Shown: positions 19,998 through 23,311 of the stretch, in pieces | How positions within the stretch are numbered: position 1 is the stretch's first letter | Layout: each line of letters begins with the position of its first letter | IMG/VR virus record: IMGVR_UViG_2711768060_000011 | Length of the DNA: 36,364 nucleotides | Strand: one strand, 5' to 3' | Origin: a virus | Taxonomy: Duplodnaviria > Heunggongvirae > Uroviricota > Caudoviricetes | Position numbers and translations under genes: made by a program | Notes under the pieces: model-generated | Seen by the model: only the letters and a program-made list of their open reading frames with translations | What the model was told of the DNA's origin: nothing | Database searches by the model: none

Positions 19998-20529
19998 CCA
20001 GCCGCGGTTATGATTTTAGGTAAATTCTACAGCTATAAATAACAAAATAAAACATCCACTTACTACATCTCTTCTTCCATTAGCCATATTTCTCACTTGC
20101 AAATCAAGCTTTTTTTGCACAACAAGGCATTATTCTCCTCAACTTTCTATATGTTGTGTCCCAACAGCTAACAAACAACTATCACCCACATCACATATGT
20201 AGGATGCTTAACTTTTTTAAAAGTTCATTATCACTTAACTAAGAACCATATTTTCAGACAATTATCTACAGCTGCCATCCATACTTTGCTGTATGCCTGT
20301 ATATTTTTCTTTGACTACTTATCGAGCTCATCCAAGTAATCAACAGCCGCACAGATAGGTCTCACCCGGTCCCGCCCTGTGTCAATTAACTCAACCTTGC
20401 ATGTCCTACTTGTGCGCAGTTCGTGATCAACGCCACTATCAGACATATGATTAACAGTTTGCTATACCTTGTTGGTATCTTTCGTTGCTTATATCCAGCG
20501 CTCTGCTATAGCCTAGATGTTGAGTCCTC

Positions 20530-20658
20530 CTATTCGTAACGCTTCTGATCAGCGTTCATTTGTACTTCGCTAGTACCGTATGAATATCCTAGACCGAATA
20601 CCCTAGCGGTAGCAGTGCTAAACGCAGCAGCTAGCAAGATAATCATTTCGATACCCAT
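20530..20658 (-). CDS. candidate small hydrophobic peptide (42 aa)
   Basis: ATG at 20658 preceded by GGGAG (spacer 4 nt); translation MGIEMIILLAAAFSTATARVFGLGYSYGTSEVQMNADQKRYE; in an otherwise ORF-poor low-GC stretch. Confidence 0.25.
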   Translation of the reverse strand: MGIEMIILLAAAFSTATARVFGLGYSYGTSEVQMNADQKRYE

Positions 20659-20749
20659 TGTGCTCCCACATCAGAGTAGATCTCAGCAGATTGAACAGAA
20701 TGTGCTAGGAATAACAATTCGAAAAAAGCTATCGTTCAATCCGCCCCTG

Positions 20750-21187
20750 TTAATCCAGGCATTGAGTTCTGATGTATTCCTGTAGGTAATTAACCTGTGC
20801 AGTTATCTTGTCGATTCCACTTCGGAGGCGGTAATAATTGAGTTCAGCATCTGCTGTAAGTCTTGGGCTTTCTCCATCGCCCATGCTGCTGGCTCCGGTC
20901 GTTGACTTTGCACAGGTGGCGGCGACTTGCAGCCGCTTACGCCCAGCAGAAACATCATCACGGAGACTTTCGATAGTCGCGTTAGCATCAGCAAGCTCCT
21001 TTGTATATCTGGCATCGAGTTCTGCTACATCATGTTGACGCTTCTGCATGTCAGCGATTGTGGATGTGGCCTTATCGCGCTGCTCTTTGTAGGTAATGGC
21101 GTTATCACGGTAATGATTAACCGCCCATGACAGGCAGACGATGATGCAGATAACCAGAGCGGAGATAATCGCGGTTACTCTGCTCAT
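20750..21187 (-). CDS. Rz: i-spanin Rz
   Basis: 145-aa ORF starting [34 protein letters not shown], near-identical to the lambda Rz N-terminus as recalled; 4-nt overlap with R. Confidence 0.9.
20803..20958 (-). CDS. Rz1: o-spanin Rz1 (lipoprotein embedded in the +1 frame of Rz)
   Basis: Embedded ORF starting [10 protein letters not shown] with a lipobox before Cys, followed by a Pro-rich tract ([16 protein letters not shown]) as in lambda Rz1. Confidence 0.75.
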
Positions 21188-21660
21188 ACCTCAATCTCTC
21201 TGACCATTCCGCCAGCTTCTTTGAATTTTGCAATCAGGTTGTCAGCCTTATGCTCGAACTGACCATAACCAGCCCCCGGCAGTGAAGCCCAGATATTGCT
21301 GCAACGGTCGATTGCCTGACGGATATCACCGCGATCAATCATCGGTAAAGCGCCACGTTCTTTAATCTGCTGCAATGCCACTGCGTCCTGGCTTTTGGGG
21401 GAGAAGTCTTTCAGGCCAAGCTGCTTACGGTAAGCATCCCACCAGCGTGAAAGAAGCTGATAACGTCCGGCTGCTGTTGATTTGAGTTTGGGGTTTAGCG
21501 TGACAAGCTTGCGAGGGTGATCGGAGTAATCAGTGAAGAGTTCTCCACCGACAATAACATCATAACCGTGGTTACGTGTCGGTTGTCGCCCGTTATCCGT
21601 TCCTTCTGACCATGCCACCATATCGAGGAAAGCTTTACGCTGAGGATTAAGATTTTGCAT
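21184..21660 (-). CDS. R: endolysin, lytic transglycosylase (lambda R)
   Basis: 158-aa ORF ...[45 protein letters not shown]..., near-identical to lambda R as recalled. Confidence 0.95.
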
Positions 21661-21964
21661 TTTTCACCCCTGTCAGTCGTTCCCAGAAGTACGTCAGTGC
21701 AACCGACCCCATCGCACCGCTAATCCCCGCTGTCGCGAGAATCATGTAAATACTGAATCCACTTTCGATGCTAATCAGGCCACCAATAACACCGGTGAAT
21801 CCTGATACCACTATTTGAGCCAGAGCATTTATCCAACTCCACGTTGCTTTACTCTGCTTCACATCTATCAGGTAGCGGACCAGACCGCCCCAACCTGCAA
21901 TGATCAGCAAAACGAGCCAGAACGCTCCGGCAAGGCTCTCTTTTTCGTGCATATGAATAGCCAA
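21647..21964 (-). CDS. holin (three predicted transmembrane helices)
   Basis: 105-aa ORF immediately upstream of and overlapping R; three hydrophobic helices; N-terminus MAIHMHEK has two Met codons (possible dual start). Confidence 0.7.
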   Translation of the reverse strand: MAIHMHEKESLAGAFWLVLLIIAGWGGLVRYLIDVKQSKATWSWINALAQIVVSGFTGVIGGLISIESGFSIYMILATAGISGAMGSVALTYFWERLTGVKNAKS

Positions 21965-22175
21965 TGTTTCGCCGCCGACAAAAGGCCGGGACGTTAAATG
22001 TCAGAATGCAGGCTCACGGGTTAATTTAACGACAAAGCACGGAGTTGATGCTCCCCGCAAGCCTTGAATAAAAAAGCCAGCATATGGCTGACAACAGAGG
22101 GTTAAGCAATGTCAATTCATCAGGCGAAGGCAACAAAAAGCCCCAGCAAATACCAGGGCTAGACAGATATGAATA

Positions 22176-22355
22176 CTACTGTTCTTCTATTTTTTTACTG
22201 GAAATCAATCCACTGGTCATTTCATAACCGTTTGTGTGGCCACAGTAAGGGCAAATAATTGGCTCTTTATCCTTTCCTCCTGGATAGCCTCCACTGTGCT
22301 CCCAATAAATAAACTCTTTATTGCAACTTTCATTACTACATCTTGTATTGCTCAT
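22176..22355 (-). CDS. small zinc-ribbon protein (59 aa), below the ORF-track size cutoff
   Basis: ATG at 22355 preceded by GGGAG; translation MSNTRCSNESCNKEFIYWEHSGGYPGGKDKEPIICPYCGHTNGYEMTSGLISSKKIEEQ contains CxxxxC...CxxC; between the Q terminator and the holin. Confidence 0.4.
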   Translation of the reverse strand: MSNTRCSNESCNKEFIYWEHSGGYPGGKDKEPIICPYCGHTNGYEMTSGLISSKKIEEQ

Positions 22356-22425
22356 TGCATCACTCCCTCAGTAAGTAAGGAAATAAATACATAGCATAAC
22401 CAAATCATTATTCGAAATTTGAGCA

Positions 22426-22451
22426 CAAAAAAAACCCGCTCGATGGCGGGT
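22426..22451 (-). terminator. tR'-like Rho-independent terminator downstream of Q
   Basis: On the minus strand, a 6-bp GC-rich stem (ACCCGC/GCGGGT) followed by a 9-nt U-run, about 110 nt downstream of the Q stop. Confidence 0.6.
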
Positions 22452-22490
22452 TCAAGAAGATTATCAACGGTAGACACACAAAGCCCATCG

Positions 22491-22505
22491 TTAGGATAAT
22501 CCTAA
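22491..22505. promoter_or_regulatory. perfect palindrome TTAGGATAATCCTAA in the candidate late promoter/qut region
   Basis: 15-bp palindrome between the Q stop and the tR'-like terminator; overlaps a possible -35 TTGCAT / -10 TAGGAT pair on the minus strand. Confidence 0.3.
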
Positions 22506-22558
22506 CCATATTTTTTGAAAAATGCAAGAATCATGTCGCCATCTTCGGCGAAAATCAT

Positions 22559-23311
22559 TTATCTTGTCACTCTCCTCAATTGTGTCTCAGCATATGCTTC
22601 TTCCTGCCAGCACTTTGTAACCAGTTTATCAATGACATCTGCATATCCTTTGTACCACTGATAATCCGTCAGGTCTGGTACCAGCTTCTGGACATGATGC
22701 CGCGCCAGTGTGGTTGGTAAACGGCTAAACCGGTTTCCATTGCAACGCCCACAAATCTTATAAACAGGCGTGCCATGAAGCCGGGTCCTTTTTTCATCCA
22801 GGACAATACCTTTACCCTTACACCCTCTGCACGCTGTGCTGACTTCTCCCTTACCATGACAATGCTGACATAGTTCCTTTACCCACTCTTCCTTGATAAC
22901 AGATTCCCCGCTTCTGGATTGTTTCACCACCTCGCGCAATACATTATGAAATCCAGTACCAGCACAATGCTCACAGCGAGCCTTACTTGCCGCAGACCTG
23001 GAATAATCAGCAAAGGCAAAATTCACAAGGTAAGGGATGATCTGTAACCGGATTTCTTCACTCAATTTGTTCAATGTCGGGTTATCCAGTGCCATCGCGT
23101 AATTGAGCAGACCTTCAATCGCAAACTGAGGATCCTGAACGCCAACTTTTGCCAGGAATAAGGTAAACCCAAGCGGTGCTTTCGACTGCACCATCCCCTG
23201 TGCAGCCATCACATCCGTAATCGTTAAACCACCTGAGCCTGTCGCCGGTGCGTCATCACTCAATTTTGGAGATTTTGGGGAGTAATATTTTGGTAAGGCT
23301 TCAAGGTTCAT
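22559..23311 (-). CDS. Q: late-gene antiterminator Q (lambda Q family)
   Basis: 250-aa ORF with YSPKSPKLSD...TDVMAAQGM N-terminus, ADYSRSAA...RCEHCAGTG and CGRCNG zinc motifs, and ...VTR C-terminus resembling lambda Q; followed by a terminator. Confidence 0.8.
   Translation of the reverse strand: MNLEALPKYYSPKSPKLSDDAPATGSGGLTITDVMAAQGMVQSKAPLGFTLFLAKVGVQDPQFAIEGLLNYAMALDNPTLNKLSEEIRLQIIPYLVNFAFADYSRSAASKARCEHCAGTGFHNVLREVVKQSRSGESVIKEEWVKELCQHCHGKGEVSTACRGCKGKGIVLDEKRTRLHGTPVYKICGRCNGNRFSRLPTTLARHHVQKLVPDLTDYQWYKGYADVIDKLVTKCWQEEAYAETQLRRVTR

Follow-up and report, generated by a model that had tools for sequence, protein, structure and literature searches.

A putative zinc-ribbon gene carried as a cassette between the Q antiterminator and holin genes of lambda-like phages

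Organization of the locus

The DNA analyzed here (IMG/VR record IMGVR_UViG_2711768060_000011; 36,364 nt, the whole stretch being called the window below) is an e14/SfV-like lambdoid prophage with intE/xisE, Q, lysis genes, a P27-type terminase, an HK97-type head and a Mu-like contractile tail. Its phage genes lie on the minus strand. A first-pass annotation had pointed to a 59-aa ORF with a GGGAG Shine-Dalgarno located past the Q gene and its tR'-like terminator, and all of these features were recovered at the positions given in Table 1. The ORF starts with ATG and lies on the minus strand, which the annotation had not stated. The cysteine arrangement described for its product was also confirmed, the two pairs being C6-x4-C11 and C35-x2-C38. 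The gene upstream is a PF03589 Q and the terminator between the two is strong, with a T-tract. On the same strand, the ORF is followed by the holin gene and then by the endolysin and Rz/Rz1 genes.

Table 1. Features around the 59-aa ORF of the window, followed by the gene contexts of its distant homologues
Feature	Locus	Position	Strand	Remarks
Q antiterminator gene, 250 aa	window	22559..23311	minus	PF03589, E=3.4e-53; RefSeq 'antitermination protein'
pR'-like late promoter	window	22527..22484	minus	-35 TTGCAT 22527-22522, 17-nt spacer, -10 TAGGAT 22504-22499
AACGATGGG after the pR'-like -10	window	22492-22484	minus	six bases past TAGGAT
tR'-like intrinsic terminator	window	22453..22424	minus	8-bp stem 22453-22432 with 5 G-C pairs, then T8
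Two upstream blocks, TTCGAA-17 nt-(TGc)TATGTA	window	22388..22416	minus	second block 38 nt before ATG; weakly promoter-like
Shine-Dalgarno GGGAG	window	22367-22363	minus	7 nt before ATG of the 59-aa ORF
59-aa zinc-ribbon ORF, MSNTRCSNESCNKEFIYWEHSGGYPGGKDKEPIICPYCGHTNGYEMTSGLISSKKIEEQ	window	22355..22176	minus	ATG start, TAG stop; RefSeq WP_023154804.1
Intrinsic terminator of the cassette	window	22160..22134	minus	9-bp stem and T-run; 15 nt past the ORF stop codon
Second terminator-like hairpin with T6	window	22092..22070	minus	between cassette and holin gene
LydA-type holin gene, first lysis gene	window	21647..21964	minus	PF16083; RefSeq start is an internal ATG at 21952
Zinc-ribbon gene past type I hsdR	L035/L036	1863-5147 in L035		13-nt gap
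Zinc-ribbon gene past type I hsdR (EcoR124-type)	L054	822-4180		overlapping, 3989 against 3992
HTH, zinc ribbon and Fic genes in a row	L069-L090			about 10 Firmicute viral contigs; zinc-ribbon stop codon overlaps Fic start
Zinc-ribbon gene before Abi_alpha	L039			Lactococcus plasmid
Zinc-ribbon gene before SIR2_2 gene	L048			
Zinc-ribbon gene before AAA_15/AAA_21 ATPase gene	L109			
Zinc-ribbon gene in integrase island with AAA_21 and RloB genes	L040			
Zinc-ribbon gene first in a four-gene operon divergent from an HTH gene	L005			Firmicute chromosomes
Zinc-ribbon gene between TerL and portal genes	L060			Firmicute phage
Zinc-ribbon gene just before holin and amidase genes	L055			Firmicute phage
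Zinc-ribbon gene past DUF1492-like gene	L112			sub-threshold match

The Q of the window and lambda Q are members of one Pfam family, the former being longer (250 aa instead of 207 aa). In the 800-bp stretch around the ORF, a terminator scan detected 8 terminator-like sites versus 0.7 expected. The spacer of about 210 nt between cassette and holin gene (21965-22175, minus strand) holds up to three terminator-like hairpins (22160-22139, 22092-22076 and 22059-22038), and this series forms unusually dense barriers ahead of the lysis genes.

Some further observations concern the surroundings of the locus. Past Rz/Rz1, a stretch of about 730 nt in the window (~20020-20750) contains only ORFs shorter than 60 aa; it is unannotated in the matching RefSeq record as well, where annotation is interrupted from the 'lysis protein' gene to the CDS that follows. 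No tRNAs were found in the window, and no Rfam hit exceeded the gathering score. A segment of 721 bp around the ORF was 100% identical to E. coli O91 RM7190 (NZ_CP015244.1). An ungapped base-for-base comparison of the full window with 1287066-1323429 of that record, however, gave 5,325 mismatches. Either the window stems from another, related copy of the prophage, or it contains indels.

Occurrence and annotation status

The ORF had been described as unannotated and as one that default gene callers would miss. Neither description holds, since NCBI PGAP calls it in 15 of 15 complete E. coli genomes that carry it, always under the label 'hypothetical protein', and the product is WP_023154804.1 in both records examined. 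The ORF is a known hypothetical protein in the databases. A literature search returned no paper on this protein or on its accession.

The 15 carriers were detected among 5,426 complete E. coli genomes, and in all 15 the cassette was at least 99% identical and never more diverged. Two scans of the 185,579 GTDB species-representative genomes detected zero copies of the gene, and a metagenome scan added just four loci. One cultured phage, Klebsiella phage Kp4864-1, whose record (OK490416.1) has no annotation, contains a copy with 78% protein identity. The rarity of the gene in E. coli and its absence from the GTDB representatives indicate that it is dispensable for the phage.

Conservation of the reading frame

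Eleven copies from different phages, with 75-85% protein identity, all kept the 59-codon frame. Between the window and the diverged copies, 29-39 differences fell on third codon positions versus 3-12 on positions 1 and 2; dN was 0.07-0.17 with synonymous sites saturated, and dN/dS was 0.06-0.07 in the less diverged pairs. Poor conservation of the frame in related phages had been named beforehand as a reason to doubt the gene, and the opposite was observed. A word-indexed search detected seven close homologue clusters, while an HMMER profile run exhaustively against 1.84 billion cluster representatives yielded 149 clusters at E<=1e-3, nearly all of them encoding proteins of 50-90 aa. The frame and all four cysteines were kept down to about 30% identity, across phyla. 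The pattern of substitutions thus makes it almost certain that the 59-aa ORF is a real gene, on which purifying selection acts strongly. One might suspect a chance ORF, or a functionless remnant in decay, in an ORF that is short, rare and without a named family, but the purifying selection on the frame, its persistence with the four cysteines across phyla, and the conserved Shine-Dalgarno site and terminator all argue against it, and given the cysteine conservation and the codon-position bias this explanation is effectively refuted.

An antisense ORF of about 50 aa (22236..22394, plus strand) was uninterrupted in every diverged copy. Its first codon positions coincide with the third, variable positions of the minus-strand frame, which argues that it is not the conserved one of the two, and it probably arises only incidentally from the sense frame.

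Predicted fold and family of the product

In a family alignment of 101 sequences, C6 and C35 were 100% conserved, C11, C38 and P36 99%, and E31 94%, followed by P25, G26, K28, T47 and G49 with 71-85%. The first knuckle is CxxC in most homologues, and 14 of the 101 sequences have a two-residue insert in it. The family core reads C-x2(4)-C-x-K-x-F ... P-G-G-K-[DE]-x-E-x-I-x-C-P-Y-C-G ... M-T-S-G ... K, in which a conserved PGGK-x-x-E loop lies between the knuckles and a T-S-G motif past the second one. The AF2 model obtained with the family alignment as input (pLDDT 88.1) was all-beta with five strands (residues 2-5, 14-20, 29-34, 41-47 and 50-55), and both knuckles were placed at hairpin turns between strands; the PGGK loop was the least confident part. 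The calculated pI was 5.5 for the 59-aa protein, and the family median of 6.0 is likewise slightly acidic. The product is therefore predicted to be a soluble, slightly acidic, all-beta C4 zinc ribbon. This agrees with the zinc-ribbon reading of the first-pass annotation, to which the model adds a five-strand beta ribbon and the alignment four invariant or nearly invariant cysteines.

Profile searches for small zinc-ribbon families, which the first-pass annotation had proposed, gave only matches to generic zinc-ribbon models below threshold, and no curated cut-off of a named family in Pfam or NCBIfam was reached by the 59-aa protein. In a Pfam scan of the family members, Zn_ribbon_3 was matched by 34 of the 101, the PaaD ribbon by 24 and Zn_ribbon_8 by 20. 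These models and DUF7559 have the two-knuckle C4 ribbon in common with the family of the window, and members match them at E values down to about 4e-6. However, the protein of the window stays below the curated cut-off of each of them, and none describes the conserved core. PADLOC-DB 2.0 gave zero matches for the protein at E<=0.01. A sequence-profile search of the PDB returned look-alikes in the cysteine pairs only (C2H2 arrays, rubredoxin, L37Ae and L33), which were rejected, and a fold search of the PDB gave nothing specific for the predicted ribbon. We conclude that proteins with the core C-x2/4-C ... PGGK-x-x-E ... CPYC ... MTSG are an uncharacterized small-protein family without a Pfam model.

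Position behind Q in different phages

The order of Q, late promoter region, tR', ORF and holin gene is common to about 30 enterobacterial phage loci. The ORF was located 175-210 nt from the Q stop codon in each of the 24 enterobacterial viral contigs, Kp4864-1 and at least three of the four metagenome loci; the one exception in spacing, L033, has a 257-aa protein of uncertain identity about 900 nt upstream. The Q genes upstream belong to three families without mutual similarity, namely PF03589 (the window, L045 and L049), PF06323 (L011, L027, L034, L052 and L111) and DUF1133/PF06530 (L022-L025). The holin genes downstream were assigned to PF16083, PF05106, PF04971 and others. The copies of L045, L049 and L111 were just 40-51% identical, yet they were still located past Q. 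The comparison shows a zinc-ribbon cassette that evidently moves between lambda-like phages as a unit, landing in every case between Q and the holin gene.

A mobile cassette at the tR' T-tract

The GC content of the cassette was 37.5%, versus 50.7% for the window and 47-50% for the Q, holin and endolysin genes, and the same AT-rich contrast with the surroundings was detected in eight other loci. In relatives whose Q and tR' were 93-99% identical to those of the window, homology ended at 22424-22426, inside the T-tract of tR'. These relatives carried unrelated genes in the slot, both without a Pfam hit: an 80-aa gene in L003 (2791-3033, WP_001306866.1) and a 261-aa gene in L004 (2705-3490, WP_047658045.1). 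Lambda has no gene of this kind in the slot. The slot past tR' is, on this comparison, a swap site.

The diverged copies delimit the same unit. The homology of L022 and L025 to the DNA of the window was restricted to 22439 to 22135, and other diverged copies matched inside the ORF only; DNA homology thus covers the ORF and, in some copies, extends about 85 nt beyond its start and about 40 nt beyond its end. A terminator past the ORF was present in nine of nine diverse loci compared, with two pairs kept via compensatory changes. In L027, the T-tract of the cassette joins 38 nt matching lambda 44770-44807, which is the sequence past tR' in lambda, and this junction suggests exchange at terminator T-tracts. 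Very probably, then, the ORF belongs to a moron cassette of about 300 bp (roughly 22431-22134) consisting of leader, Shine-Dalgarno, zinc-ribbon gene and intrinsic terminator. The first-pass annotation had already read the place as a moron site, and the variable slot, the AT-rich cassette and its own terminator agree with that; no link of the 59-aa gene to toxin-like cargo was found.

In Stx phages, stx is the cargo of the slot between Q and S, that is, from pR'/tR' to the holin gene. The term moron was reportedly defined for HK97 and HK022 (by Juhala and Hendrix, in 2000). With the moron cargo of these phages the gene of the window has in common a placement that follows Q, pR' and tR' and precedes the holin gene, its insertion relative to relatives with other or no cargo there, a deviant base composition and a terminator of its own. 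Unlike classical morons, the cassette lacks a convincing promoter of its own, it encodes a predicted 59-aa cytoplasmic zinc ribbon instead of a toxin or surface product, and this one small cassette is encountered behind Q genes of three unrelated families. In L011, L027 and L034, all with a PF06323-type Q, tRNA-like T-arm motifs (ggttcgagtcc...) were observed past the cassette terminator, which suggests that tRNA genes may share the slot between Q and holin gene there, as in Stx phages.

Expression of the cassette

The late promoter region of lambda is arranged as TTGACT-17-TAAATT-tgactc-AACGATGGG. The layout in the window is the same, and the last element is identical, corresponding to the start of the lambda pR' transcript. 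The AACGAT in this region we take to be the sigma70-dependent pause element where lambda Q engages the polymerase. A consensus promoter scan of the window did not call this promoter. The lambda-like pR' region fits the lambda-type (PF03589) Q of the window. Since a strong terminator follows pR', a short leader RNA from this promoter would end about 70 nt before the ORF.

Terminators flanked the ORF on both sides in every locus examined. Between tR' and the ORF, the diverged copies that share this upstream region could be aligned, and they displayed two conserved leader blocks, TTCGAA/TTCGAC/TTCGCT and, 17 nt further, TGcTATGTA/TGtTATGTG/TGgTATGAA/TGaTATGAA, the second of which keeps a distance of 37-38 nt from the ATG across five diverged lineages. 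A conserved RNA structure was looked for in the aligned 5'-UTR leaders and not found; a leader hairpin masking the Shine-Dalgarno, possible in the window alone (z = -2.0), was not conserved and was rejected.

The leader blocks raise the question of whether the gene is expressed by itself, as classical morons are. According to this explanation, a weak promoter TTCGAA-17-TGcTATGTA would be active in the lysogen, the product would benefit the host, for example by superinfection exclusion or abortion, and the cassette terminator would shield the lysis genes. The two blocks with their 17-nt spacing, TG-n motif and constant distance from the ATG in five lineages are consistent with it, as is L049, which at the same position scores as a promoter (TTTAAA-17-TATATT). 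A conserved cassette terminator is needed only against polymerase without Q modification, and some homologues lie in defence islands beside Abi or SIR2-type genes. However, the key final T is missing from the -10-like hexamers (TATGTA, TATGTG, TATGAA and TATTAA), the -35 blocks match at no more than two or three of six positions, and the protein has no PADLOC match. L049 was also the only one of the four loci scanned to score; in the window, L011 and L045 the consensus scan stayed below threshold and gave no promoter. We consider a self-expressed moron rather unlikely, although the leader blocks and the cassette terminator together could mean a weak own promoter and expression in the lysogen, which would favor host benefit or exclusion over counter-defence.

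Two flanking terminators without a consistent promoter suggest that transcription would be mainly by Q-modified polymerase. Read-through of tR' by such polymerase from pR' would be the only expression route common to all copies, and Q-gated late expression is thus likely. It had been proposed earlier that the position of the ORF puts it under Q-antiterminated late transcription, and the lambda-like pR', the tR' before the ORF and the lack of a consistent own promoter are in agreement with this placement. In the Q-gated route, a terminator-resistant, Q-modified RNA polymerase starting at pR' would transcribe the zinc-ribbon gene, and its product would be the first late protein made. Lysogens would show at most a trickle of expression via read-through of tR'. 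The cassette terminator would stop unmodified polymerase, whether leaking through tR' or starting weakly inside the cassette, ahead of the lysis genes.

Gene contexts of distant homologues

Distant homologues were located in various contexts (Table 1). Two unrelated settings place the gene at the end of a type I hsdR. In one of them (L035), a gene for a protein of 638 aa that includes a CapP-like peptidase segment comes next. About ten Firmicute viral contigs carry HTH, zinc-ribbon and Fic genes in a row; in L069 (3744-4926), this Firmicute mobile-element operon encodes an HTH protein of 71 aa, a zinc ribbon of 65 aa and a Fic protein of about 250 aa. A single protein, P0146, fuses the HTH and zinc-ribbon parts. 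The operon looks like a toxin-regulator module. No partner gene was constant across the contexts among the loci compared. What the contexts have in common is an accessory place in a mobile element, frequently next to conflict enzymes.

Discussion

In mobile elements, distant homologues lie beside HsdR, Fic, Abi_alpha, SIR2-like and AAA_21 genes or are translationally coupled to them, and this led us to choose a counter-defence or conflict-modulating role for the gene. Its product has no enzymatic features and so would most likely act by binding another macromolecule. The zinc-ribbon protein may bind its partner via the conserved PGGK-x-x-E loop, and would neutralize a host or prophage immunity effector when late proteins appear. 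A counter-defence function, or one in conflict of phages with their hosts or with other phages, at the onset of late expression ranks first among the roles considered, and it is put forward tentatively. As no partner gene is common across contexts, the functional inference by guilt of association is weak. Most known anti-restriction genes are early genes, which would make a late-expressed counter-defence factor unusual. Taken as a whole, the reading of a selected zinc-ribbon gene in a moron cassette at the tR' T-tract, Q-gated and with a role in counter-defence, lies just on the probable side of even.

A broader version of the counter-defence reading can be proposed, in which the family would be a stand-alone, cross-phylum, antitoxin-like module that binds immunity effectors of the HsdR, Fic, Abi_alpha and SIR2 types and turns them off. 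In mobile elements, the ribbon would be co-translated with effectors targeting nucleic acids or nucleotides and act as their brake, and an orphan copy, taken up by lambdoid phages, would have been put first among all Q-dependent late genes. There it would disarm abortive-infection systems triggered by the appearance of late proteins. We regard this version as speculative and on balance improbable.

Behind counter-defence, the alternatives rank in the order of a lysogen-expressed exclusion moron, discussed above, a Ral/Lar-like alleviation factor and a late regulator. By analogy with lambda Ral and Rac Lar, the protein might bind or modulate type I restriction-modification (HsdR) complexes, so that progeny or resident DNA would escape restriction or be modified more efficiently. 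Like Lar/RalR and Ral, it is a prophage-encoded C4 zinc ribbon of about 60 aa with weak PHROG similarity, the match to PHROG 6422 ('Lar-like restriction alleviation protein') having E=0.002, with 32 of the 101 members matching and a best value of 4.4e-6. In addition, some homologues adjoin hsdR, the gene lying directly past, or overlapping the end of, a bona fide type I hsdR in two unrelated elements. However, other generic zinc-ribbon PHROGs scored equally well, and most homologue contexts had no restriction-modification genes. Homology to Lar/RalR (PF14354) was rejected: an hhalign comparison with Rac RalR/Lar gave 14% probability with non-corresponding knuckles paired, and PF14354, which RalR matches at 2.9e-14, was neither among the Pfam families that the protein matched at E<=1 nor one of the 25 listed for the 101 alignment members. 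The gene of the window also differs in lying in the late operon and not in the early region, and its family has a PGGK-x-x-E loop and an MTSG motif of its own. Restriction alleviation is accordingly a doubtful function for it, with a low probability.

A zinc-finger late regulator that tunes late transcription or lysis timing, either by contacting RNA polymerase like Ogr of P2 and Delta of P4 or by activating translation like Com of Mu, is very unlikely. Ogr and Delta are small phage C4 zinc proteins too, and an Ogr/Delta-like zinc-finger protein was the top neighbor in a Foldseek search of viral structures (TMq 0.59, probability 0.72). The gene is first in the late transcript, it adjoins lysis genes in lambdoid phages and in the Firmicute phage L055, and a few members match PHROGs for Com and 'translational regulator'. 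However, the fold match is not significant (E=0.46) and Pfam gave no Ogr_Delta or Com hit, and membership in Ogr/Delta was rejected. An acidic-to-neutral protein is also ill-suited to nucleic-acid binding. Near-identical Q and lysis modules work without the gene, which is thus not a core regulator. Unlike Ogr and Delta, the gene is accessory and rare, not essential, and late transcription in phages of this type is controlled by Q.

Counter-defence stays as the favored, tentative role of what is an accessory gene of an ordinary kind, already in the databases, whose cassette structure is unusually clear and whose family is unnamed. If the family does not modulate immunity effectors, the gene is one more hypothetical phage accessory gene. 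The locus is a clean example of a single-gene cassette moving among unrelated late-control modules, with three non-homologous Q families and junctions at terminator T-tracts. From Firmicutes to Enterobacteriaceae, the unnamed family to which it belongs is found repeatedly beside restriction, Fic and Abi genes. If its members do modulate immunity effectors, a compact and easily testable counter-defence or regulatory module would be added.
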